Part shown: positions 1-10,349 of the stretch, piece after piece | Layout: each line of letters opens with the position of its first letter | Numbering within the stretch: the first letter of the stretch is position 1 | Assembly (NCBI GenBank): GCA_002779075.1 | Contig: PEXK01000032.1 | Span: 1-10,349, forward strand | DNA: 10,349 nucleotides | Direction of reading: 5' to 3' | From: Candidatus Diapherotrites archaeon CG08_land_8_20_14_0_20_30_16 | GTDB taxonomy: Archaea > Iainarchaeota > Iainarchaeia > Iainarchaeales > 0-14-0-20-30-16 | Made by a program: the position numbers and the translations under genes | The notes under the pieces: model-generated | Told to the model about the DNA's origin: nothing | Database searches by the model: none | What the model saw: only the letters and a program-made list of their open reading frames with translations

Positions 1-386
1 CTTGCATATTCCTGTGCAACATGTGTGCAATCACTTTCTGAAAACCCAGTTAGTTGACGATATTTATACAAATAATAAATAGGATCGCCTGTACTTTGGT
101 AAATCATAACTTTATCTATGCCTTGTGGCCTTCTAAATAAAGACTCTTCAACTGGAATTCCTTTATCTATTAATTTCCAAGCGATATCTAATTCTTCTTG
201 GGTTACATTTTCTCTAATTACAAATTCTTTTCCTTTTATTTTTACAAGTCTAGTTCTTCTTAACAATCCGCCAACCCTTGGTAGTTTTTCTTTATTAACA
301 GTAATTAATTCTGGTTTTGTATATTTTGGTTTTTTATTTCTTTTCAGCATCCTTGAAAGTATCTCTTTAAATCTTAATGTTGCCAT
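1..386 (-). CDS. Hypothetical protein, N-terminal part (gene continues past the left window edge)
   Basis: The minus-strand frame is open from the ATG (reverse complement of 384-386) to position 1. Hand translation gives MATLRFKEILSRMLKRNKKPKYTKPELITVNKEKLPRVGGLLRRTRLVKIKGKEFVIRENVTQEELDIAWKLIDKGIPVEESLFRRPQGIDKVMIYQSTGDPIYYLYKYRQLTGFSESDCTHVAQEYA. Its composition is balanced and K/E/R-rich, as expected for a real protein. The opposite-strand ORF 118-390 is S/F/L/N-rich, as expected for an antisense shadow. No family was recognised. Confidence 0.55.
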   Translation of the reverse strand, partial: MATLRFKEILSRMLKRNKKPKYTKPELITVNKEKLPRVGGLLRRTRLVKIKGKEFVIRENVTQEELDIAWKLIDKGIPVEESLFRRPQGIDKVMIYQSTGDPIYYLYKYRQLTGFSESDCTHVAQEYA

Positions 387-410
387 ATAAGATATTCTTA
401 AGGAAATGTT

Positions 411-424
411 TATATATATATATA
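411..424 (-). promoter_or_regulatory. (TA)7 tract, candidate TATA box for the minus-strand gene starting at 386
   Basis: A perfect TATATATATATATA run lies 25-38 nt upstream of the minus-strand ATG at 386. That spacing fits an archaeal TATA box driving a leaderless or near-leaderless mRNA. Confidence 0.35.
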
Positions 425-435
425 ACATATATCTT

Positions 436-461
436 CACACTAGGCAGTGTAAATTTATATG
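436..461 (+). promoter_or_regulatory. Palindrome-plus-TATA element, copy A (CACACTAGGCAGTGTAAATTTATATG)
   Basis: The inverted repeat ACACT(437-441)/AGTGT(446-450) flanks AGGC and abuts the TATA-like AAATTTATAT (451-460). Near-identical copies occur at 2953-2977, 3011-3029 and 7481-7511. Confidence 0.4.
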
Positions 462-512
462 CTGCTAAGGTGTGATATCAAACAGATAAGTGTATGAAAT
501 TTTAAGCATTAG

Positions 513-529
513 CAAGAATTTTATACAAA
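513..529 (+). repeat. 17-bp perfect direct repeat, copy 1 (CAAGAATTTTATACAAA)
   Basis: It is identical to 561-577. The similarity extends to about 22 bp (512-534 versus 560-582, two mismatches). It contains a TATA-like TTTATA core. Confidence 0.9.
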
Positions 530-560
530 GTGTTAGAGTGTAGAAAATTCAAGACTCTGT

Positions 561-577
561 CAAGAATTTTATACAAA
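561..577 (+). repeat. 17-bp perfect direct repeat, copy 2 (CAAGAATTTTATACAAA)
   Basis: It is identical to 513-529 and lies 48 bp downstream of it. A related sequence, ATATTTTACAAAGTGT, occurs at 7525-7540. Confidence 0.9.
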
Positions 578-669
578 ATGTCAAAAGCTCACAGCCATTT
601 TGACACAAGTCGAAGCCTTACTAACACAAGTTTGTATGCTGGAAACAAGATTAAATAAGAGGGATTTTT

Positions 670-2967
670 ATGACACACAAAGATGCGAATTTGCCGTGGG
701 TTGAAAAATATAGGCCTGATTCTTTAAATGATGTTGTAGGAAACGAACTAGTTGTAAAAAGATTAAAGAAATACACAGAGGATAAAGATCTTCCAAATAT
801 GATTTTTGCAGGGCCCGCAGGTACAGGAAAAACAACCAGTGCAATAGCAATATCTAAACAATTGTTCAAAGAAAATGCTGAGAGAAATTTTTTAGAATTA
901 AATGCGAGTGTAACACCAGATACACCAATTTTAATAAAAGAAGGCAAAGAAATACATAGAGTTAATTTTGGTTGGCTCGCAGAGAAATATTTTTTAGATT
1001 TTGTATCTAAGCGGGTTTGTATTGATGATCTAGAAGTGTTATCTTTAGATAAGTGCAACAATGTTAAATTTATGAAAGTAGGACATTTGTTTAGACATAA
1101 AGTAAACGAAATATTAAAAATAAAATATGAAGGTGGCGAAGTAAAAACAAGTTTATCTCATTCTATAATGGTTTTTGATGATTGTGGCAATATAATTACT
1201 AAAAAAGCCTCAGAAATAAAGAAAGGCGATCTTTTGATTTCTTTTAAAACAGATTTTGAAGGGCAATCAAATTATATTGATTTAGAAAAATATAAATCTG
1301 CTGAATTTTGTCAATTAAGAAGTGGTATTCAACCAAATCCTACATTCAAAAAAAATTTTGACACACTTTCAATTGATGATGATTTAAGTTGGTATTTTGG
1401 AATGTATTTAGCAGAAGGTTGTACTTCTATGTCAAACACAGGTACTAGTGGTCAGATTATTTATACTTTGGGTTATCCCAACCCAAAAGATGTACCGCAT
1501 ATAGAAAATATACAAAAAATAAGTACTTCTTTAGGATTAAACTATTCTTGTTATTTAGGAGCATCTGGTTTTGATAGAACAAAGAAAACCTCTTTGCAGA
1601 CAAGAGTTTTTAATACACAATTAGCAAAGTTTATGCAAGCTAATTTTTATGGTGGCGATATATCCCACAAAGCGAATACAAAAAGAGTACCCACCTTTAT
1701 TTTTGATACAAATTCAAAACAAAGATTATCATTTATAAAAGGATATTGGGATGGTGATGGTTCCGGAATTTGGGAAAAAGTTGCACGAATATCATCAGTA
1801 TCTCAAGAATGTCTTATAGATGTTGTTTGGTTAAGTAGACTATCTAATGTTGAATCAAGCGTTTTTCCAAAAGAAACAAGATTAATTTGGCCAAATAAAT
1901 CTTTTAGTTATACTAAAGCAGAACTTTTGCCATCAAAAATATTCAACAAATTAGCAGAAAAATACAAAGGGAAGACAAAATATTTGCTGAGACATTCACT
2001 TTATAGTAAAATGTGTGATCGTATTTCGAAGACTGCTGCAGAAAAAGTATTGGCATTATTAAAAAATAAAAAAGGATTAGAAAAGCTCAACAAATTAGTA
2101 AATTCTGATTTATATGTTCTAGCGGTAACAGAAATAAAAAAGGAAAAACATAATGATTATGTGTATGATGTTTCTGTTCCGGGTGCTGAAGTTTTTTGGG
2201 GTGGCACAGCCCCTGTTTTGCTTCATAATAGTGATGACAGGGGCATCGATGTTGTTAGAAAAACAATAAAAGATTTTGCAAGAACCCTCCCCTTAGAGGC
2301 TGAGTATAAAATTATTTTTTTGGATGAGGCGGATGCTTTAACACAAGATGCCCAGCAAGCATTAAGAAGAACAATGGAAAAATATACAAGAACATGCAGA
2401 TTTATTTTATCTTGCAATTATTCATCACGCATTATTGAACCAATACAATCAAGATGTGTTGTCTTTAGGTTTAAGCCTTTGGAAAAAGAATCTGTTATAA
2501 ACAGACTAGAAGAGGTTTCGAAAAACGAAAAACTAAAAATAGATAATAAAGCATTGAGCGCAATATTTTATGTTTCATTAGGCGACATGAGAAAAGCAAT
2601 AAATATTTTACAAGCGTGTAGTGTTTTGGATGATTCTATTGGTGAGCAAGAAGTATTCACAGTAAGTGCCAGGGCAAGGCCTGAAGAAGTAAAAAAAATG
2701 GTTTTACTCGCAAAAGATGGAAAATTTAAAGATGCAAGAGATCTTTTATACAAACTGATGTTTAATTATGGTATGTCTGGAGAAGATATTTTGAATCAAA
2801 TTTATCGCGAAGTAGTTGATTTTTCAGAGGATTATTTGAATTCGAGAGAAAAAGTAAGTTTAATTGAGATTATAAGTGAAATTAATTTTAGAGTATCTGA
2901 AGGTGCAAACGATAGGCTTCAAATAGAGGCTATGTTGGCCATGTTTAATTTACACACTAAGCAGTAA
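670..2967 (+). CDS. rfcS: Replication factor C small subunit (clamp loader AAA+ ATPase), intein-containing precursor
   Basis: The RFC boxes are readable in the translation:
- PWVEKYRP (box II);
- GPAGTGKTT (Walker A);
- LELNA...SDDRGIDVVR (box IV, split by the insert);
- IIFLDEADALT (Walker B);
- ALRRTMEKY;
- IQSRCVVFRF (SRC motif);
- GDMRKAIN.
The two exteins total 324 aa, a typical size for an RFC small subunit. An AGAGGGA ribosome-binding site at 658-664 precedes the ATG at 670. Confidence 0.95.
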   Translation: MTHKDANLPWVEKYRPDSLNDVVGNELVVKRLKKYTEDKDLPNMIFAGPAGTGKTTSAIAISKQLFKENAERNFLELNASVTPDTPILIKEGKEIHRVNFGWLAEKYFLDFVSKRVCIDDLEVLSLDKCNNVKFMKVGHLFRHKVNEILKIKYEGGEVKTSLSHSIMVFDDCGNIITKKASEIKKGDLLISFKTDFEGQSNYIDLEKYKSAEFCQLRSGIQPNPTFKKNFDTLSIDDDLSWYFGMYLAEGCTSMSNTGTSGQIIYTLGYPNPKDVPHIENIQKISTSLGLNYSCYLGASGFDRTKKTSLQTRVFNTQLAKFMQANFYGGDISHKANTKRVPTFIFDTNSKQRLSFIKGYWDGDGSGIWEKVARISSVSQECLIDVVWLSRLSNVESSVFPKETRLIWPNKSFSYTKAELLPSKIFNKLAEKYKGKTKYLLRHSLYSKMCDRISKTAAEKVLALLKNKKGLEKLNKLVNSDLYVLAVTEIKKEKHNDYVYDVSVPGAEVFWGGTAPVLLHNSDDRGIDVVRKTIKDFARTLPLEAEYKIIFLDEADALTQDAQQALRRTMEKYTRTCRFILSCNYSSRIIEPIQSRCVVFRFKPLEKESVINRLEEVSKNEKLKIDNKALSAIFYVSLGDMRKAINILQACSVLDDSIGEQEVFTVSARARPEEVKKMVLLAKDGKFKDARDLLYKLMFNYGMSGEDILNQIYREVVDFSEDYLNSREKVSLIEIISEINFRVSEGANDRLQIEAMLAMFNLHTKQ
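907..2229 (+). mobile_element. Intein (441 aa) with a LAGLIDADG homing-endonuclease domain, inserted in RFC box IV
   Basis: Removing 907-2229 restores the canonical LELNA-SDDRGIDVV.
- The N-terminal splice block is SVTPDTPILIKEG (Ser1).
- The block-B-like motif is KTSLSHSIMV (1147-1161).
- The two LAGLIDADG-type motifs are LSWYFGMYLAEG (1384-1419) and LSFIKGYWDGDG (1726-1761).
- The C-terminal blocks are YVYDVSVPGAEVFWGG and VLLHN, followed by Ser+1 at 2230.
The insert is in frame and has no stop codons. Confidence 0.9.
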
Positions 2968-2977
2968 AATTTATATG
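2953..2977 (+). promoter_or_regulatory. Palindrome-plus-TATA element, copy B (CACACTAAGCAGTAAAATTTATATG), overlapping the rfcS stop codon
   Basis: It differs from copy A by one substitution and one indel. The last four rfcS codons and the TAA stop (2953-2967) lie inside the element. Confidence 0.4.
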
Positions 2978-2996
2978 TAAATTTTATGTATCGATT

Positions 2997-3014
2997 GTGT
3001 ATTGGCTAATACAC
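2997..3014 (+). other. Perfect 7-bp stem / 4-nt loop hairpin or palindrome (GTGTATT-GGCT-AATACAC)
   Basis: All 7 pairs between 2997-3003 and 3008-3014 were checked by hand. It sits between rfcS and the pilus ATPase gene, and its 3' arm overlaps element copy C. It could be a terminator-like hairpin or an operator. Confidence 0.3.
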
Positions 3015-3029
3015 TAAACAGTAAAATTT
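3011..3029 (+). promoter_or_regulatory. Palindrome-plus-TATA element, copy C (ACACTAAACAGTAAAATTT), likely promoter of the pilus ATPase gene
   Basis: It has one mismatch to the corresponding part of copy B. The A/T box at about 3022-3029 lies roughly 30-35 nt upstream of the ATG at 3058, which fits an archaeal TATA box with a very short leader. Confidence 0.4.
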
Positions 3030-3057
3030 GTGGTTAGGTATAAATATTGGTGATTTG

Positions 3058-4734
3058 ATGGGAGAAATAATGGGAGATTTATTTAAGGATACTCAACAGA
3101 AGAAAAAGAAAGATATTAGACAAGACGATTTTAATAAAGAATTGCAGAGTATAATTGGTTCGCCAAAGAAAATTTCTTTGCCAGAAGAGGAACAGTCAAC
3201 AAAAGATGTACCAATTCAAAAAATTGATTCAAAACATTTTGAAAATCTCAAAAATATACTGAATACAACAAAAGAAATAAGTGTAGATTCTTTAGGAGAA
3301 GTTCAAAAAACAGTTGTTGCAAAATATAATCAAGTTACAATATACAAATTAGAAGGACGCCCATTATTGCATTATGAAGTGCCTGTGCCAAAAGCAAATA
3401 CGAGCGAACAAGAAATAATAAATACAATAAAGGAAGCAGCTACAAGAATAATTTCTCTAGCACCATATAAAATAAGGGACGAGAAACAAAGATGGAATGT
3501 TTATTATCAAAAAGTTATGGAAATAATTAATTCATCTCCAGAATTGAAAATTCCAGAGAGCATGTTAAGTTTTTATGCTGAAAGTGTTGTAAGAGAAATG
3601 GTGGGTTTTGGAAAAATAGATCTTTTGTTAAAAGATGATTTATTAGAAGAAATAATGATTATTGGCCCAAACCACCCAGTGTACGTTTTTCATAGGCAAT
3701 ATGAAATGATGACAACAAATATTGTTTTTTATACTGATAAAGAGATTCAAGATATTGTTGGAAGAATTGCAAGATATGCAGGAAGAAGAATAGATTATTC
3801 ACAACCATTATTGGATGCTCGTTTGCCTGATGGATCAAGAGTAAATGCTACTTTGCCCCCAGCATCTGTTCAAGGCTCTACCTTAACTATTAGAAAATTT
3901 AGAGAAGAGCCATATACTGTTGTTGATTTGATAAGTTATAAAACATTTGATTCTTATGTTGCTGGTTTTTTATGGACTTGTGTTGAAGGCTTAAGTACAA
4001 AACCAGCAAATATCGTTATTTCTGGAGGTACAGGATCAGGTAAAACAACAACTCTAAATGTTTTGTGTTCTTTGATCCCTGAATATGAAAGGATTATTTC
4101 GATCGAGGACACTTCAGAATTAAATCTCCCTTTGAAACATTGGATTAGATTAGAATCTAGGCCACCAGGAATAGAAGGCACCGGGGAAATTACTTTAGAG
4201 ATGCTTACAAAGAATGCTTTGAGAATGAGACCCGATAGAATAATAGTTGGTGAAGTAAGAGGTGCTGAAGCAGATACTCTTTTTACTGCTATGTCAACAG
4301 GACACGATGGAAGTATGGGAACATTGCATGCAAACAATTCTGATGAAACTTTAACACGAATTACAAACCCACCAATGAACGTTCCTAAGATGATGTTGGC
4401 AGGATTGGATATGATAATTGTTCAAAATAGGTTGCACGACAAAAAAAAAGGAACAATAAGACGAATTGTGGAGATTTCTGAAGTTTCTGGCGTTATTGAA
4501 GATCAAATTAAAACACAAAGGATATTTGAATGGGATCCTAAACGCGATAAAATATATGATACTTCTATACCTTCAAGAGTAGTTAAAAATATTTCAACAT
4601 ATTCTGGAAGAACAACACAAAATGTAAAAGACGAAATAGATAATAGAGCACAATTCTTTGATTTGTTGTTAGAAAAAAATATAAGAAAAAAAGACGATGT
4701 CGCAAAATATATTGCGAAATATTATGAATCTTAA
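3058..4734 (+). CDS. Type IV pilus / archaellum-family assembly ATPase (FlaI/ArlI, EpdL, TadA/CpaF, VirB11 superfamily)
   Basis: Four signature motifs are present:
- Walker A GGTGSGKTTTLN (4024-4050 region);
- Asp box ISIEDTSEL;
- Walker B RPDRIIVGEVRGAEA (4234-4263 region);
- His box TGHDGSMGTLHANN.
I moved the start from the track's TTG at 3028 to the ATG at 3058, which is preceded by GGTGA at 3049-3053. The ATG at 3070 is an alternative start. Confidence 0.9.
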   Translation: MGEIMGDLFKDTQQKKKKDIRQDDFNKELQSIIGSPKKISLPEEEQSTKDVPIQKIDSKHFENLKNILNTTKEISVDSLGEVQKTVVAKYNQVTIYKLEGRPLLHYEVPVPKANTSEQEIINTIKEAATRIISLAPYKIRDEKQRWNVYYQKVMEIINSSPELKIPESMLSFYAESVVREMVGFGKIDLLLKDDLLEEIMIIGPNHPVYVFHRQYEMMTTNIVFYTDKEIQDIVGRIARYAGRRIDYSQPLLDARLPDGSRVNATLPPASVQGSTLTIRKFREEPYTVVDLISYKTFDSYVAGFLWTCVEGLSTKPANIVISGGTGSGKTTTLNVLCSLIPEYERIISIEDTSELNLPLKHWIRLESRPPGIEGTGEITLEMLTKNALRMRPDRIIVGEVRGAEADTLFTAMSTGHDGSMGTLHANNSDETLTRITNPPMNVPKMMLAGLDMIIVQNRLHDKKKGTIRRIVEISEVSGVIEDQIKTQRIFEWDPKRDKIYDTSIPSRVVKNISTYSGRTTQNVKDEIDNRAQFFDLLLEKNIRKKDDVAKYIAKYYES

Positions 4735-4818
4735 AATTTGTGATGAATATGGCCAGTAATTATTTTTCTCAAAAAGAAAAATAACAACAGGTCCAAAAAA
4801 ATAAAAAGAGGAATTTTT

Positions 4819-5952
4819 ATGGCTTATCAACAAACCTTTGTTTCAGATACCAGCAAAAATAAAGTTGAAATACAAGAACAGATAGACATGTCTAAAGTTG
4901 ATGCCATAGTTAATAGAATAAAAGAAAAATATGAGAAGCAAGGATTGTTAGGGGATTCAGAAACATATAATTTAAAAGAATTAAGATCATTGATCTCCGA
5001 GGGAAAAAGAGCAAAGATAGAAGTGTTGAAGCCTGCTGATTTATCGTACAGTTTTAATCCTGTTGTACGAAATATTGGCACAATATATACTAAATTCAGC
5101 AAGTTTTTTGGATTTATTGCAAAAAAGATTTTAGGAAAATTGCCAGAGTCTAAAGTGTTAGCATACGAACTTTATTCTGCAGATATAAATTATAGTGTTT
5201 CACAATATTTGGCAATAGCATCAGTTTCTGTTTTTTTATTTAATTTGGTAGTAATTATTGCATTATTTTCTGTATTTTTATTGTTAGGAGTAAGTTTTTT
5301 AATACCTTTAATATTGTGCATCTTCTTTTTTATAGGGGGTGCATTTTTTGCTTTGAAATACCCCTCAATGATTGCAAAAAAGAGAGCTAAAGAAATAGAT
5401 ACTAATTTGCCTTTTGCATTAAGGCACATGGCAACTCTCTTGAGAGCTGGGGTGGACTTGTATAAAGTGGTAAGAACAGTTGCTGTATCTGATTATGGTG
5501 TTTTGTCACAAGAATTAACAAAAACAATAATGGAAGTTGAAGAAGGCCAAGACATTAAAGATGCTTTGAGAGCATTATCCCTCAGAACAAAATCATTTGC
5601 TTTGAAAAACGCAATAAATCATTTGTTAAGAGCATTAAAGAGCGGAGGAAATTTGTCAGAAATAATGACAACAATTGCAGATGATGTGTCTTATCAATTG
5701 TCTGCAGATATTGATACCTTTTCTGGGAAATTAAATTTTTTAGGAGTAATTTATATTTTTGTTGGAATTGTTGTTCCTGTAATGTTGGCAATATTATCTG
5801 GAATAAGGAATGCGCCTTTGGGATCGAGCATTTCCTTTTTTGATGCTCTTCCTTTAACTCCAACTGTAATAATAATTTCTTTTTTAGTAATATTCCCGCT
5901 GATATTATTGGGTTTGTTATTGTATATTAGAAGTATAAGGCCAAGTATATAG
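4819..5952 (+). CDS. Pilus platform membrane protein with a single T2SSF domain (TadB/EpdJ-like)
   Basis: One T2SSF-type cytoplasmic domain is visible (LPFALRHMATLLRAGVDLYKVVRTVAVSDYGVLSQELTKTIMEVEEGQDIKDALRAL ... LLRALKSGGNLSEIM). It is flanked by hydrophobic transmembrane segments. An AGAGGAA ribosome-binding site lies upstream of the ATG at 4819. Confidence 0.85.
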   Translation: MAYQQTFVSDTSKNKVEIQEQIDMSKVDAIVNRIKEKYEKQGLLGDSETYNLKELRSLISEGKRAKIEVLKPADLSYSFNPVVRNIGTIYTKFSKFFGFIAKKILGKLPESKVLAYELYSADINYSVSQYLAIASVSVFLFNLVVIIALFSVFLLLGVSFLIPLILCIFFFIGGAFFALKYPSMIAKKRAKEIDTNLPFALRHMATLLRAGVDLYKVVRTVAVSDYGVLSQELTKTIMEVEEGQDIKDALRALSLRTKSFALKNAINHLLRALKSGGNLSEIMTTIADDVSYQLSADIDTFSGKLNFLGVIYIFVGIVVPVMLAILSGIRNAPLGSSISFFDALPLTPTVIIISFLVIFPLILLGLLLYIRSIRPSI

Positions 5953-5961
5953 TGATATTTT

Positions 5962-6870
5962 ATGTTCAATATAAATTTGATGTTGCAAAAATACCAAACT
6001 GTTTTGTACAGGAACAAAATAAAGATAAATGTTAATCTTTGGCTTCTCCTTGCTTTGATTGTTGGTTTGATAGTTTTGTTTTTGTTTATTTTATTAGGAA
6101 ATATAGTTTTAGGGATCGTAGGATTTTTGTGTGCATTTGATTTGTTTATAGGTTATCCCTTATTTTTAGAAGAGAAAAGAATTTCTCTTATAGAAAAGTA
6201 TTTTCCAAATGCATTAAGAGAAATTGCATATCTTTTAAAAACCGGAGGAACGTACGAATACGCTATAAGAGAGTTGACAACTTATGATTATGGGCCATTG
6301 AATGATGAATTTGAAAATGTTTTGCTAAGATTAGAACAAGGTTATAATTTTGAAGAATCATTATCTATTGTTGCTGAAAATGTAGATTCACAAATGGTGA
6401 AAAAGACAATATCTATAATTTCAGATTCTATAAAAGCTGGTGCTTCTTTATCAGATATTTTAGAGGATTTGTCTGAAGATATGCGAAAATTATACAAATT
6501 AGAATTAGATAGAAAAGCAAAAACAATGATGCAAATGCTTTTTATTTTTGCAGCTGGAGCAATAATTGCTCCCGCAATCTATGGTTTGGTTTTAACCCTA
6601 ATCGATTTTTTACTTACTGTAACATCATCTGCAGGACTGGCAAAGCTAGAAACAGTTGCAACTGCACTAGGTGTTAGAAATTTAATCGAAAGCGTATTAA
6701 CTATATTTGTTTTTATTCAGGCTTTGGCATCATCTATAATGGTTGTTTTCATGCGTGAACGTAAATTTGCAAAAACCTTTTTGTATCTGCCATTGTTTTT
6801 ATTGTGTGCGTATATTGCATTCTACGGCATAAAGTACCTTTCGAAATATTTATTAATAGGAATGATGTAA
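5962..6870 (+). CDS. Pilus platform membrane protein with a single T2SSF domain (TadC/EpdK-like)
   Basis: This is a second, divergent T2SSF-type domain (FPNALREIAYLLKTGGTYEYAIRELTTYDYGPLNDEFENVLLRLEQGYNFEESL ... IKAGASLSDILEDLSEDM). It has an N-terminal transmembrane segment and C-terminal transmembrane segments. The gene starts 9 nt after the previous stop. Confidence 0.85.
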   Translation: MFNINLMLQKYQTVLYRNKIKINVNLWLLLALIVGLIVLFLFILLGNIVLGIVGFLCAFDLFIGYPLFLEEKRISLIEKYFPNALREIAYLLKTGGTYEYAIRELTTYDYGPLNDEFENVLLRLEQGYNFEESLSIVAENVDSQMVKKTISIISDSIKAGASLSDILEDLSEDMRKLYKLELDRKAKTMMQMLFIFAAGAIIAPAIYGLVLTLIDFLLTVTSSAGLAKLETVATALGVRNLIESVLTIFVFIQALASSIMVVFMRERKFAKTFLYLPLFLLCAYIAFYGIKYLSKYLLIGMM

Positions 6871-6885
6871 TTTTAGTGAGCATTT

Positions 6886-7065
6886 ATGAATGAAAGTTAT
6901 ATTGATGATAAAAAAGCACAAACATCTTTGGAAGTAATATTGATTGTAGCTGGTGTTTTGGTACTAGTTACATTAATAGGTTATTATATTAAAACCAAGG
7001 TTGTTGAATCTCAACCAGATGAAAACAAGTGGAAAGAATTGTATGAAAAAACAAGTGGAAAATAA
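6886..7065 (+). CDS. Mini-pilin 1, class III signal peptide protein (59 aa; absent from the ORF track)
   Basis: Hand translation gives MNESYIDDKKAQTSLEVILIVAGVLVLVTLIGYYIKTKVVESQPDENKWKELYEKTSGK. It has a basic KKA followed by Q, then SLE and a hydrophobic helix of about 20 aa, the same design as the two neighbouring pilins. Confidence 0.75.
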   Translation: MNESYIDDKKAQTSLEVILIVAGVLVLVTLIGYYIKTKVVESQPDENKWKELYEKTSGK

Positions 7066-7088
7066 AATTATTTTTGGAGGGGTAAAAA

Positions 7089-7292
7089 ATGAAATTTCTA
7101 AAAGATGAAAAAGCACAAGGCGCTTTGGAGTACCTTTTAATTATTGGTGGGTCTATTGTTCTGGCTGCTGTGGTTATTGCTATTGTAATTAATTTGGGCA
7201 AGAAAGGCGGCTCAGATGTAAATAGCCAAACCGAAGTTTACACGAATACCTTAAAAAGCGGAAAAAATGCAATACCAGAAATAGAGCAGTGA
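7089..7292 (+). CDS. Mini-pilin 2, class III signal peptide (former DUF361-type) pilin, 67 aa
   Basis: The protein begins MKFLKDEKAQGALEYLLIIGGSIVLAAVVIAIVINLG. This matches the archaeal class III signal peptide consensus of a basic residue, a small residue, Q, then xxLEYLL. A strong GGAGG at 7076-7080 lies 8 nt upstream of the ATG. Confidence 0.9.
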   Translation: MKFLKDEKAQGALEYLLIIGGSIVLAAVVIAIVINLGKKGGSDVNSQTEVYTNTLKSGKNAIPEIEQ

Positions 7293-7299
7293 TCCTTTT

Positions 7300-7479
7300 A
7301 TGTATTTTAAAGAAAAGAGGGCTCAAGTATCTTTAGAGTACCTCTTAACTATTGTTTTTGCAATTGTTTTGGTTGCAATAGTTACTGTCTTTGTTTTAAA
7401 TGTGCATTACTTAGGTGATGTTGCAAAGGACAGAATAAAAAATTATAAAACAAAATACTTTGAAAAAATCTTCGCCTAG
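7300..7479 (+). CDS. Mini-pilin 3, class III signal peptide protein (59 aa; absent from the ORF track)
   Basis: Hand translation gives MYFKEKRAQVSLEYLLTIVFAIVLVAIVTVFVLNVHYLGDVAKDRIKNYKTKYFEKIFA. It carries the same KRA-Q-xSLEYLL motif and starts 7 nt after the stop of pilin 2. Confidence 0.8.
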   Translation: MYFKEKRAQVSLEYLLTIVFAIVLVAIVTVFVLNVHYLGDVAKDRIKNYKTKYFEKIFA

Positions 7480-7480
7480 C

Positions 7481-7511
7481 ACACTGGGCATACAGTGTAG
7501 AATATTTTATG
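7481..7511 (+). promoter_or_regulatory. Palindrome-plus-TATA element, copy D (ACACTG-GGCATA-CAGTGT-AGAATATTTTATG)
   Basis: A perfect 6-bp inverted repeat (7481-7486 / 7493-7498) begins 2 nt after the pilin-3 stop and is followed by an A/T-rich, T-run-containing box. It could act as a post-pilin terminator hairpin, as an operator plus TATA box, or as both. Confidence 0.4.
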
Positions 7512-7575
7512 TCTATTGACACAAATATTTTACAAAGTGTCACAAGATCTTTGGAATACAAAGCCTTAATGACAC

Positions 7576-7587
7576 AAATTTTATGTA
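7576..7587 (+). promoter_or_regulatory. TATA-like box AAATTTTATGTA, likely promoter of the prepilin peptidase gene
   Basis: This 12-mer is identical to 2979-2990. It lies about 40-48 nt upstream of the ATG at 7624, which leaves room for a short leader carrying AGGA (7614-7617). Confidence 0.35.
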
Positions 7588-7623
7588 GTGCTAGGATGTG
7601 TGGTTGTGTTGCTAGGAATTACT

Positions 7624-8739
7624 ATGTCTATCTACTTCTTAATAAATTGTATTATTGTTTTTGTCTGTCTTCTTTATTCAACAATTACTGATATTAAAAA
7701 AAGAGAAGTATCAAATTATATCACTATTGGCCTTTTGGTATATGGTACAATTGCAAATGCAATTTATTTCTTTCTGATTAAGGGCTATTTATCAACTATA
7801 TATTTTCTTATGTTTGATGCTCTTGTTTTTTTGATTTGTTATTTGCTTTGGAAATTAGGAATTTTTGCAGGCGGAGATGCAAAACTATTTTCTGGAATTG
7901 CAGCAACCATTCCTATATTGAGTCAATCAATTTTTTTTATGGGGTGGTCTGGGTTTCCATTTATTTTATCTCTTTTTATTTTGTCTATTTTAGCAATGTT
8001 CCCTATAGTATCAGTAAAACTTCTTTTTGTATACTTTAAAAGAGCAAATATAAAAGAAAAAGTAGTAAGTAGTTTAAGAAAAAATTTTGCAGGATTTGTT
8101 TTCAATATTCTGTATGTTGTTTCTCTTTTTTTTGTATTTTCGTTTTTTACTCTTCCATTTTGGATATTTTTAATAATATCCATATTTTTGGGTTTTGTAT
8201 CAAAGAGAATAAGGTACCCATTATCTGTTGTAATTTTTGTAGTTGCTGTAATAATAAACCCGAGCAGTACTATTTCTGTTATGCTATTATCTATTGTGAT
8301 TGCTTTGTTTATTGCTTTAATGATTAACTTGTTTGTACTTTCAAAATCTGGAATCTTCAATTATAAAAAAAGAGTCGCGGATTTGATGGAAGGAGATTTA
8401 TTGGCACATAATTTAATACAGGATAATAAGAAATTAATTCCATTGAAGTTTGATTTTTGGCTACACCTAAAAATAGCATTTAAACAGAGTCTGAAAAAAG
8501 GTATAAAACCTATTTTTGAATTGTTGGAAAAGAGAAAGCATTTATATAGAGAAATTGTTATTAATAATACCTTGGCAGCAGGGGTGTCAAAAAAAGAAAT
8601 TTCACAAATAAAGAAAAGATATTTTGAGAAGGAAATTGAATTAAAGGAAACAACGCCTTTAGTTCCAAGCATATTGCTTGCATATGTTGTTTTAATTGTT
8701 TTTGGTGATGTTGTATGGTTGCTGGTTTCTTTAATATAG
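7624..8739 (+). CDS. Archaeal A24-family prepilin/preflagellin peptidase (FlaK/PibD/EppA-like), long form (371 aa)
   Basis: The first catalytic Asp sits in LLYSTITDIKKREVSNY (D at 7690-7692). The second sits in GIFAGGDAKLF (D at 7876-7878). The protein is polytopic. A C-terminal soluble segment is followed by TPLVPSILLAYVV. I moved the start from the track's GTG at 7588 to the ATG at 7624, so the protein begins MSIYFLINCIIVF with a transmembrane helix, as in FlaK/PibD. Confidence 0.9.
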   Translation: MSIYFLINCIIVFVCLLYSTITDIKKREVSNYITIGLLVYGTIANAIYFFLIKGYLSTIYFLMFDALVFLICYLLWKLGIFAGGDAKLFSGIAATIPILSQSIFFMGWSGFPFILSLFILSILAMFPIVSVKLLFVYFKRANIKEKVVSSLRKNFAGFVFNILYVVSLFFVFSFFTLPFWIFLIISIFLGFVSKRIRYPLSVVIFVVAVIINPSSTISVMLLSIVIALFIALMINLFVLSKSGIFNYKKRVADLMEGDLLAHNLIQDNKKLIPLKFDFWLHLKIAFKQSLKKGIKPIFELLEKRKHLYREIVINNTLAAGVSKKEISQIKKRYFEKEIELKETTPLVPSILLAYVVLIVFGDVVWLLVSLI

Positions 8740-9299
8740 GCAAAAAGGGGCAATTGAGTGTTGAGTTTTTGCTTATTTTGCTGGTTGTTTTGATAATTAT
8801 AGAAACAATAATTATTCCATTAAGGGATTATTCACAGGCATCTGTTGAGGATATGGTTGCAATAAGTTATTTAGAAGAAAACATATCAAAAATTCAAAGC
8901 GTAATTCAAGATTTGAATACCTATTCAGAAGCAAAATTGACACTAAAGATTCACGTTCCAGAAGATGCAAATTTTTATATTACAAATGTAAGTTTTACGG
9001 GACCTTTGGTATCAACAACTATAAGTTATTCATATGTTTTAAAATCTTATGATTTAAATGTGGGCTCATGTAGTTCTAATGGTTGTCTAAATTCAACAAA
9101 CACATCTCCAATATGTATAACCAATTCCCAGCAAATATCTACACCTCAAATAGTATGTACGCTTACAGGGAACTTTAAGCCTTGCATTTTTTTTCCCATT
9201 ACTAGATATGGTTATTTATTGTCCGAAGGGAGCTATTTATTGGAATTTAAAAAATCGGGAAATACAACAACAATATCAAAAGAGGAATTATATGAATAA
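8715..9299 (+). CDS. Pilin-like protein with class III signal peptide (194 aa)
   Basis: The N-terminus is MVAGFFNIGKKGQLSVEFLLILLVVLIIIE, that is KKG then Q, with E at +5. The C-terminal part is Cys-rich (5 Cys) and carries several N-x-S/T sequons (NIS, NVS, NST, NTS, NTT). The gene overlaps the peptidase gene by 25 nt. Confidence 0.75.
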   Translation: MVAGFFNIGKKGQLSVEFLLILLVVLIIIETIIIPLRDYSQASVEDMVAISYLEENISKIQSVIQDLNTYSEAKLTLKIHVPEDANFYITNVSFTGPLVSTTISYSYVLKSYDLNVGSCSSNGCLNSTNTSPICITNSQQISTPQIVCTLTGNFKPCIFFPITRYGYLLSEGSYLLEFKKSGNTTTISKEELYE

Positions 9300-9624
9300 A
9301 GGGCAAGTAGCAATAGATCTGCTTTTTGCAGTTATTTTATTTTTGGTTATTGTAACCTTCTTTCTTAATTATGTTAATGATTTGAATCAAACAACAGATG
9401 ATTATATTTCAAATGTTTCTTTATTTAATTCATATATTTTAACCTACGATTTGGTAAAAAGCACTGATTATATAAAAGATATAAACGTAATATTTTATTT
9501 CAAAGACATTAATTTTTCCTACGATACAACCAATAAAAGAATAATTTTGGACGAAAATAACAATTATATAATATCTACAAAGAATATTTTTTGCAAGCCG
9601 CAAATAAAGGCTTGTGGTAAGTGA
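9292..9624 (+). CDS. Pilin-like protein with class III signal peptide (110 aa)
   Basis: From the ATG at 9292 the protein begins MNKGQVAIDLLFAVILFLVIVTFF. GAGG at 9282-9285 precedes the start, and the ATGAATAA overlap with the upstream stop suggests translational coupling. The track's start at 9208 would add 28 non-pilin residues that overlap the previous gene. Confidence 0.7.
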   Translation: MNKGQVAIDLLFAVILFLVIVTFFLNYVNDLNQTTDDYISNVSLFNSYILTYDLVKSTDYIKDINVIFYFKDINFSYDTTNKRIILDENNNYIISTKNIFCKPQIKACGK

Positions 9625-9630
9625 TTCTAT

Positions 9631-10131
9631 ATGCAAAAAGGATTTTTCATATCTTTAGATTTAATTATCTGTGTTGTTGCAGTATTCTTTTTGTTTGGAA
9701 TTCTAGGGGCTTATTTGCATTCAGGAATACAAGACTTTGCAACCTACAAAGATGATGCAAAAATGCAATCAACAATGAATATTGTACTCAATAGATTAGC
9801 AAGCTCAGAACATAGTTGTGATATGGTAGATGATCTAGGGTTTAGTATTAAAAAAGTGAATTTTTGTATACAGCTTAACACTAATTTGTCAAATCTGATT
9901 AATGATTTGGATTATAACGTTTCTATAGGTTGTTACGCCTACTCTAAAAACCTATTTGTGCCCTGTTTTCAAATACATCCTTTTGTGCTTTCAAATTCAG
10001 AGAAATATATTGCAAAAGATATTTTTCTTTTGGTACCCTCAAATACTTTATTTAAACAAAAATATTTTGAATGTACTGAAGGAAATTGCGGCATAAATAT
10101 TACATTGGTGAGAGTGTATGTTTGGAATTAG
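9631..10131 (+). CDS. Pilin-like protein, class III-type signal peptide with KG-F junction (166 aa)
   Basis: The protein begins MQKGFFISLDLIICVVAVFFLFGILGAYL, a very short basic leader followed by a hydrophobic helix. The remainder is a Cys-containing domain with NLS, NVS and NIT sequons. Confidence 0.65.
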   Translation: MQKGFFISLDLIICVVAVFFLFGILGAYLHSGIQDFATYKDDAKMQSTMNIVLNRLASSEHSCDMVDDLGFSIKKVNFCIQLNTNLSNLINDLDYNVSIGCYAYSKNLFVPCFQIHPFVLSNSEKYIAKDIFLLVPSNTLFKQKYFECTEGNCGINITLVRVYVWN

Positions 10132-10349
10132 CCCTATATTGGAAGATAATAAAGGAATTATTTTTATTCTTGATTTAGTTTTCTGCGTTGCGATAGTTGT
10201 TTTGGCACTAGCAGTTATAACACAAATAAAAACCCCTAAAATTACTACTTATCAAAACGATTTAACTTATTTTGAAGCAGGTTCTTTTTTAATGAATCAG
10301 GAGATTGTAACAACAATAGATGCAAATAAAGATTATGTTTGTAGAAACT
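10118..10349 (+). CDS. Pilin-like protein, N-terminal part (continues past the right window edge)
   Basis: Hand translation from the ATG at 10118 gives MFGISPILEDNKGIIFILDLVFCVAIVVLALAVITQIKTPKITTYQNDLTYFEAGSFLMNQEIVTTIDANKDYVCRN, with no stop before the window edge. It has an NKG junction followed by a hydrophobic helix. It overlaps the previous gene by 14 nt. Confidence 0.55.
   Translation, partial: MFGISPILEDNKGIIFILDLVFCVAIVVLALAVITQIKTPKITTYQNDLTYFEAGSFLMNQEIVTTIDANKDYVCRN

Follow-up and report, generated by a model that had tools for sequence, protein, structure and literature searches.

The DNA analysed here, 10,349 nucleotides (nt) of contig PEXK01000032.1 from Candidatus Diapherotrites archaeon CG08_land_8_20_14_0_20_30_16 (positions 1 to 10,349; hereafter the window, meaning this stretch at its full length), carries a real and well conserved type IV pilus operon, which runs co-directionally on the + strand from position 3058 to the window edge. 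We consider it very likely that this block constitutes a self-contained archaeal type IV pilus operon of the Epd-like, Tad-related kind ('system 1') in a small archaeon from groundwater, belonging to the Iainarchaeota (formerly Diapherotrites; DPANN). The pilus is probably used for attachment to surfaces or to other cells: adhesion is inferred from the known roles of Epd and Tad systems together with the pattern of strain microdiversity described below. A first-pass annotation had proposed an Epd/Tad-like locus, and this reading holds on account of the split platform, the short, Flp/EpdE-sized mini-pilins with Gln at position +1 and Glu at +5, a peptidase with EppA-type architecture, an ATPase grouping with CpaF and the lack of archaellum genes. 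It had also described the system as probably an uncharacterised member of the Epd/Tad clade, which is correct in experimental terms, although Diapherotrites type IV pili, like system 1 loci in DPANN, have been reported before.

Calls of open reading frames (ORFs) together with Pfam and NCBIfam profile matches place all five component classes of the initial description in one co-directional block on the + strand (Table 1): an assembly ATPase, two platform proteins, three mini-pilins (mp1-mp3), a prepilin peptidase and larger pilin-like proteins (L1-L5; the loci used for comparison are numbered L001-L026). The genome had been described as AT-rich, and the GC content of the window was measured at ~30%. 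The locus does run off the window edge, with L4 cut and relatives carrying the rest of L4 as well as L5, and archaellum-specific genes are indeed absent, neither the window nor the 10 kb on either side of related loci containing an archaellin or FlaF/G/H/CDE gene.

Table 1. Components of the pilus block, with positions in the window (aa, amino acids; E, E-value of the profile match; a slash marks the predicted signal cleavage site; MFE, minimum free energy).
Feature	Coordinates	Strand	Details
Assembly ATPase	3058..4734	+	558 aa; alternative starts 3028 and 3070; PF00437, E 1e-46
Platform protein 1	4819..5952	+	377 aa; one PF00482 at residues 200-326, E 3e-21
Platform protein 2	5962..6870	+	302 aa; one PF00482 at residues 84-207, E 5e-16
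Mini-pilin 1 (mp1)	6886..7065	+	59 aa; signal MNESYIDDKKA/QTSLE; mature 48 aa predicted; PF04021, E 4e-8
Mini-pilin 2 (mp2)	7089..7292	+	67 aa; signal MKFLKDEKA/QGALEY; mature 58 aa predicted; PF04021, E 6e-5
Mini-pilin 3 (mp3)	7300..7479	+	59 aa; signal MYFKEKRA/QVSLEY; mature 51 aa predicted; PF04021, E 2e-4
Spacer between mini-pilin 3 and peptidase	7480..7623	+	two predicted hairpins (7474-7530); MFE -15.7 kcal/mol, z = -3.2 vs shuffles
Prepilin peptidase	7624 (or GTG 7588)..8739	+	371 aa (383 aa from GTG); PF01478, E 1e-10, and PF06819 (Arc_PepC)
Minor pilin-like L1	8715..9299	+	194 aa; signal GKKG/QLSVEF; PF04021, E 2e-5; overlaps peptidase stop by 25 nt
Minor pilin-like L2	9292..9624	+	110 aa; signal MNKG/QVAIDL; overlaps L1 stop by 8 nt; gene calls in L001/L002
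Minor pilin-like L3	9631..10131	+	166 aa; signal MQKG/FFISLD, without Gln+1; starts 6 nt after L2 stop
Minor pilin-like L4	10118..10349 (window edge)	+	77 codons present; signal EDNKG/IIFILD; overlaps L3 stop by 14 nt

The operon is not peculiar to this contig. A scan of species-representative genomes returned 21 loci: the close ones all belong to Iainarchaeota/Diapherotrites or to related DPANN metagenome-assembled genomes (MAGs), and include the complete genome GW2011_AR10 (CP010424), which carries an orthologous operon, while four Thermoplasmatota loci match at ~35% identity. Queried with the window proteins, 13 distinct other Iainarchaeota loci maintain one gene order (ATPase, N-half and C-half platform, 2-4 mini-pilins, peptidase, L1), and three further loci, cut by contig ends, are consistent with it.

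The assembly ATPase combines a catalytic core of the TadA/CpaF kind with a C-terminal region of archaeal type (~65 aa) and an N-terminus that is variable and rich in Lys and Glu, and its match to PF00437 (T2SSE) agrees with the earlier assignment to the FlaI/TadA family. Its NCBIfam scores all remain below the respective cut-offs (FlaI, 313 bits vs 550; TadA, TIGR03819, 245 vs 373). Matches in the PDB gave total scores of 275 bits for afGspE, 252 for CpaF and 226 for FlaI, with the higher total for afGspE explained by a longer alignment that takes in the C-terminus, whereas the alignment with CpaF is restricted to the core. Over the 301 core columns common to all four proteins, the window ATPase is 45.5% identical to CpaF, 41.2% to afGspE and 37.5% to FlaI. 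The motifs it has in common with CpaF are the Walker A sequence ISGGTGSGKTT, RLExRPP and TGHDGSMGTLHAN; FlaI and afGspE instead show GETASGKTT and other His boxes. In a neighbour-joining (NJ) tree of the same columns, with the PDB sequences of CpaF, FlaI and afGspE as references (EpdL, UpsE and AapE are not in this tree), the window clade and its Hydrothermarchaeales relatives join CpaF with 94.5% split support, and the quartet ((window, CpaF), (FlaI, afGspE)) was obtained in 200/200 bootstraps; the Thermoplasmatota ATPases group with afGspE, apart from the window and CpaF. Among these references the ATPase does not group with the archaellar FlaI, as the first-pass annotation had expected, and FlaI is the most distant of the three. 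As Tad and Epd-like systems form a single clade in published trees (Denise et al., PMC6668835), the grouping of the ATPase with CpaF supports an Epd/Tad assignment. The C-terminal ~65 residues align with afGspE and FlaI and not with CpaF, which, taken together with the archaeal genomic context, makes a recent bacterial origin unlikely.

In many Iainarchaeota orthologues the ATPase is interrupted by inteins (183-533 aa) at two sites in catalytic motifs, after TGHDG^S (L014, L015, L017, L018, L019 and L026) and after SIED^T (L020 and L021), giving ORFs of 755-1180 aa; the window ATPase is intein-free. Other homologues of 790-970 aa (P0012, P0014, P0035 and similar, for example from Hydrothermarchaeales; ~46-52% identity) exhibit long extra N-terminal regions, and since they sit in the clade on the CpaF side, this clade reaches beyond DPANN. 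A protein of 595 aa and 57% identity, P0099, is labelled 'CpaF family protein [Candidatus Izemoplasmatales bacterium]' and nests among DPANN sequences in the tree, where its position would be accounted for either by a misbinned archaeal contig or by transfer.

Both platform proteins carry one T2SSF domain only, in line with the initial description, and the two domains map to different halves of ArlJ: platform protein 1 aligns to positions 7-211 of the 555 in ArlJ model NF004704, hence the N-terminal half, and platform protein 2 to ArlJ model positions 175-462 of 465 and 269-552 of 555, hence the C-terminal half. The two are paralogues (30% identity, E 2e-16), and ArlJ models score 45-81 bits on them vs cut-offs of 400-550; searches of the PDB with either sequence returned no matches. 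Judged by these alignments, platform protein 1 is the equivalent of the N-half of a two-domain ArlJ/PilC protein and platform protein 2 that of the C-half, which in the scheme of Denise et al. (PMC6668835) correspond to the TadC-like and the TadB-like half, respectively; the same authors describe fission of the platform into halves for Epd-like and Tad systems. The split, together with Gln+1 pilins, had been put forward as a hallmark of Epd pili: it is present here, but it is not exclusive to that group, given that two tadC-like genes are frequent in clade 2 systems (Makarova 2016, PMC4858521), that split platforms occur in subsystems 4A and 4B according to a preprint (Sivabalasarma & Albers 2026) and that they are found in the Thermoplasmatota loci L022-L025. 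The latter loci show the order ATPase, N-half platform, C-half platform and second ATPase, with both ATPases afGspE-like (54-56% core identity), and so represent a split platform outside the CpaF-like clade.

All three mini-pilins consist of a class III signal with the consensus K-A/Q-x-x-L-E and a single N-terminal hydrophobic helix, with Gln+1 and Glu+5 invariant in 18/18 aligned mini-pilins. Three tandem mini-pilins had been predicted and three are found, although only mp1 passes the PF04021 gathering score of 23.7 (33.4 bits), with mp2 (23.4) and mp3 (21.5) just below it; a PDB search with the mini-pilin profile gave non-significant matches only, with archaeal pilins at the top. They correspond to three paralogue types kept across the Iainarchaeota, of which the mp1 type is recognised by 'AQTSxE...YxKT' and the mp3 type by 'AQVSFEYLLTV', and since each of them matches a type conserved across the phylum they are not recent duplicates. 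Mini-pilin 2 possesses the strongest Shine-Dalgarno sequence (GGAGGGG, 8 nt upstream), and it is this feature, combined with its being the only one of the three to vary between strains, that makes it the best candidate for the major pilin. Directly 3' of the mini-pilin 3 stop, the two hairpins predicted in the spacer could act as an attenuator or a processing site, lowering read-through into the peptidase and minor-pilin genes; the spacer is not conserved in relative L006, where the gap measures only 5 nt.

The prepilin peptidase is a GxGD aspartyl protease, and its two Pfam matches agree with the A24 class assigned to it at the outset. Its AlphaFold 2 (AF2) model (pLDDT 83) comprises ~9 transmembrane (TM) helices and a soluble alpha/beta domain (residues 247-340) ahead of the last TM helix, a topology with which hydropathy agrees, and the catalytic D23 and GGD85 motif are invariant in 18 homologues. 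The best NCBIfam match is EppA (NF053826), which aligns over model positions 3-331 of 334, while the FlaK model matches only the N-terminal 115 residues; the only real fold match of the peptidase model in the PDB is FlaK (3S0X). EppA has been described as FlaK plus four TM segments, a nine-TM variant (PMC4858521, PMC4187195), and the ~9 TM helices and end-to-end alignment of the window protein match this architecture. By the NCBIfam standard the protein is nevertheless not an EppA equivalog (48.9 bits vs a cut-off of 450): the sequence is very divergent and it is the architecture that is shared. A homologue search returned 21 matches, all from close relatives and none of them named EppA.

Downstream of the peptidase, L1-L4 each open with a short basic leader, K-G and a hydrophobic helix. 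The match of L1 to PF04021 is above the gathering score, and its AF2 model (pLDDT 82) exhibits a 52-residue N-terminal helix followed by an 8-strand beta domain, such that the protein is modelled with the classical 'lollipop' shape of a pilin; a Foldseek search of this model against the PDB gave no meaningful match (best E 0.14, probability 0.15). Its N-terminal half is conserved and its C-terminal half hypervariable, and a homologue search with L1 found 11 matches, all in close relatives. Both L2 and L3 have an N-terminal hydrophobic helix and orthologues in L005-L007; the 138-aa ORF call for L2 is overlong, the conserved start being MNKGQ at 9292. Orthologues of L4 are 82-96 aa long, and L5, as seen in relatives (138-185 aa), begins with KG/FFS and lacks an acidic residue near the N-terminus. 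Two claims made for these genes from the letters alone need amendment: the overlap with the preceding stop applies to L1, L2 and L4 but not to L3, and five of the seven pilin-type genes encode Gln+1, with L3 (KG/FFISLD) and L4 (KG/IIFILD) as the exceptions. As to where the locus ends, a question raised by the first-pass annotation, all four other contigs with an identical ATPase stop at or before the window edge. Orthologous loci whose ATPases are 84% and 73% identical to that of the window carry L1-L5 after the peptidase and, beyond them, convergent Peptidase_M48 and LemA genes; five minor pilin-like genes are thus found in L005, L006 and L007 and four in the window, and as the loci of relatives end after L5, the window lacks only the end of L4 and L5. 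Archaellin, ArlF/G/H/CDE, secretin and TadZ genes are all absent downstream in these relatives. Some of the more distantly related Iainarchaeota have their L2-L5-like genes a few kb past the core operon (L009, 11885-13459; L008, 20705-21417), separated from it by unrelated genes including one for a ~390-aa membrane protein.

Strain microdiversity was analysed by comparing the window with L001 and L002, two contigs that belong to the same population but come from other samples. The genes for replication factor C (RFC), the ATPase and mp1 show 0 differences in ~4.2 kb and the peptidase 0-2, as against 6-7 in the 204 nt of mp2 and 4-5 in L1; in L3 there are 6 differences in 409 nt vs L001 and 1 in the 201 nt common with L002. 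Thus, nearly all strain substitutions sit in mp2, L1 and L3, and almost all of them are non-synonymous: in mp2, 5-6 non-synonymous or stop changes vs 0-1 synonymous, all in codons 46-67 (the C-terminal tail); in L1, 4 vs 0 (L001) and 3 vs 1 (L002); in L3, 6 vs 0 (L001). Where L1 variants are 92-96% identical, their differences fall in two patches of the beta domain. Taken as a whole, the pattern agrees with diversifying selection on what would be the exposed surfaces of the pilus. Of the individual changes in mp2, S46N gives rise to a glycosylation sequon (N-Q-T), and another turns Q67 into a stop. All contigs with the ATPase of this strain (the window and L001-L004) end within or before L3/L4, which suggests that co-assembly failed there owing to strain variation in the distal minor-pilin genes.

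From these components we infer how the pilus would be processed and assembled. By means of the class III signal and hydrophobic helix, the prepilins (three short ones and the five larger pilin-like proteins) would enter the membrane, whereupon the ~9-TM GxGD peptidase encoded in the operon would cut the short basic leader after K-[A/G], exposing Gln+1 with Glu/Asp at +5. As a pair, the half-size platform proteins would act as one two-domain PilC/ArlJ equivalent, driven by a hexameric CpaF-like ATPase so that pilins are lifted from the membrane into a thin filament. This filament would consist mainly of helix-only pilin, with mini-pilin 2 as the best candidate, whilst the L1-L5 set may prime assembly and sit at the tip, where L5, devoid of the acidic residue, may be the cap. 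Attachment to surfaces or other cells would then be mediated by the exposed, fast-varying parts of pilin 2, L1 and L3.

Four kinds of known system come closest to the operon. It resembles the Epd pilus of Methanococcus maripaludis (EpdA-E, EppA, EpdJ/K/L; Makarova clade 1/'system 1') in having two half-size platform genes beside the ATPase, very short pilins (59-67 aa with 8-11-aa signals here; 74 aa with a 12-aa signal for M. maripaludis MMP1685) with Gln+1 and an acidic +5 residue, a dedicated and enlarged A24 peptidase with about four TM helices more than FlaK, five or more minor pilins and a presumed adhesive role. Unlike in Methanococcus, where the ATPase/platform genes, the major pilin gene and an 11-gene epd locus are dispersed (PMC4187195), everything is gathered here in one ~8-kb operon, and this locus lacks a MinD/FleN- or FlaH-like ATPase and the Methanococcus-specific accessory genes; moreover, the peptidase is far under the EppA equivalog cut-off, three minor pilins lack Gln+1 and the host is a DPANN archaeon rather than a methanogen. 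With bacterial Tad/Flp pili (type IVc; Cpa of Caulobacter crescentus) the operon shares the ATPase core and its identical Walker A and His-box signatures, a TadB/TadC-like split platform and helix-only pilins of ~50 aa, two of the three with EY at +5/+6. It differs from them in the absence of secretin (RcpA/CpaC), TadZ/CpaE, TadD and TadG, in a TIGR03819 score well short of the cut-off, in a 371-aa archaeal peptidase in place of the small TadV/CpaA, in a platform order of N-half then C-half, in a mini-pilin cleavage site with mostly Ala at -1 and Gln at +1, and in an ATPase that keeps the archaeal C-terminal region. A third group, the euryarchaeal afGspE-type (clade 2-like) pili (A. fulgidus GspE, 2OAP; L022-L025), has the same ATPase C-terminal region and, in L022-L025, also two single-domain platform genes, but the ATPase core belongs to the other clade and the Thermoplasmatota loci have a second ATPase gene; phmmer searches with the window proteins as queries (E <= 1e-3) found no homologue of the window mini-pilins or peptidase in L022-L025. 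The nearest counterparts by host are the system 1 loci of DPANN (Sivabalasarma & Albers 2026 preprint), which have an ATPase and two platform genes in the same host group.

Several points weigh against an Epd-like, Tad-related assignment. The trees took in no EpdL, EpdJ/K or EppA reference sequences, and all NCBIfam matches lie far below the equivalog cut-offs. L3, L4 and L5 do not exhibit Gln+1, a residue that matters for EppA cleavage in M. maripaludis (PMC4187195), and the split platform also occurs with ATPases that are not CpaF-like as well as in subsystem 4A of some DPANN. No second ATPase of the MinD/FleN (arCOG00589), TadZ- or FlaH-like (arCOG04148) kind was found in the locus or in 10-kb flanks (L001, L005 and the P0004 contig; the rest of the genome was not searched), and the filament itself is a prediction from the genes. 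Some of these points would favour a different class of archaeal type IV pilus, for instance subsystem 4A or the clade 2 euryarchaeal type, with only superficial likeness to Epd/Tad: subsystem 4A in some DPANN has two platform proteins, clade 2 often has two tadC-like genes, as L022-L025 show directly, and the best single PDB bit score of the ATPase is that for afGspE. We regard this as unlikely, as CpaF is the closest reference over the core columns, the quartets are unanimous and the afGspE score is inflated by the longer alignment; furthermore, the pilins match PF04021 with a QxSxE motif and the peptidase is of the large EppA-type architecture. The 2026 preprint defines subsystem 4A by pilins of arCOG11238/arCOG06117 and by a PilY-like adhesin encoded downstream of the platform genes, and neither a PilY-like gene nor any large adhesin-like ORF is present at the locus in the window or in relatives.

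A machine for uptake or secretion rather than an exposed filament, in which the pilins of a reduced symbiont would serve as an import or export piston (a pseudopilus akin to the type II secretion system, T2SS, or a DNA uptake apparatus), would explain the set of five minor pilins, which resembles those of bacterial T2SS and competence systems, and CpaF-type motors can both extend and retract (PMC11300603). With no ComEC/ComEA-like, nuclease or secreted-substrate genes in the locus or flanks, with the characterised Epd and Tad relatives being adhesive and with positive selection on exposed pilin tails fitting an exposed filament, we hold this to be quite improbable. A bacterial Tad locus, whether gained through horizontal transfer or lying on a misbinned bacterial contig, appears very improbable as an explanation of the block, even though many homologues are named 'CpaF family protein' at NCBI and one at 57% identity is labelled as an Izemoplasmatales bacterium MAG: an archaeal RFC small subunit gene adjoins the block, archaeal synteny and context extend across the phylum including a complete genome, the peptidase belongs to the archaeal A24 type and carries Arc_PepC, the C-terminus of the ATPase aligns with the corresponding regions of afGspE and FlaI, and secretin, TadZ, TadD and TadG genes are missing. 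The chance that this is a motility operon encoding an archaellum is slighter still, bordering on the negligible. The FlaI model does give the best NCBIfam bit score for the ATPase, and JGI auto-annotation names its homologues FlaI, but both this score and those of the ArlJ models stay far beneath their cut-offs, no archaellin or ArlF/G/H/CDE/X genes are found in the window or downstream in relatives, the platform is split and FlaI is the most distant of the three ATPase references. A bindosome was considered as well and rejected, as BasE scored 203 bits vs a cut-off of 1000 and substrate-binding proteins are absent.

The pilus block is preceded in the window by the gene for the RFC small subunit (670-2967, + strand, 765 aa), which is split at about residues 90-520 by an intein with a LAGLIDADG-type region; the orthologues in the closest relatives, L005 and L006, are 320-323 aa long and without intein. 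Divergent to it, a partial gene at 1-428 (- strand) represents the N-terminal part of a 251-aa gene, whose copy on the longer contig L001 shows a weak protein-kinase Pfam match. Scans of the window with Rfam and for tRNAs gave no matches.

The operon is experimentally uncharacterised but conceptually not new, since systems of this kind are already on record for such archaea: Vazquez-Campos (2021) noted type IV pili in reference genomes of Diapherotrites, Makarova et al. 2019 gave illustrations of divergent pilus loci from DPANN, system 1 (Epd-type, with two platform genes) is reported in DPANN in the preprint of Sivabalasarma & Albers (2026), and the AR10 genome is cited in the literature on Diapherotrites/DPANN pili (same preprint; Vazquez-Campos 2021). 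Its value lies in offering a compact reference example of the Epd/Tad type in DPANN, with peptidase and full minor-pilin set in one ~8-kb operon conserved across the phylum, so that it lends itself well to reconstitution in a heterologous host and to structural studies of helix-only archaeal pilins. The question of how Tad arose gains a data point from it as well, without current understanding being overturned. A bolder proposal, which we think rather unlikely, is that the Iainarchaeota/DPANN operon is the closest archaeal sister of bacterial Tad, more CpaF-like than methanogen Epd, devoid of TadZ and contained in a single transferable operon, with pilin 2 and the minor pilins under strong diversifying selection through host-cell recognition; if true, a DPANN-like lineage would become a candidate donor in the transfer from archaea to bacteria that gave rise to Tad. 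The near-purely non-synonymous variation of the pilins suggests selection by interacting agents, be they hosts, viruses or grazers, which is of relevance for the attachment of ultra-small archaea to their partners.

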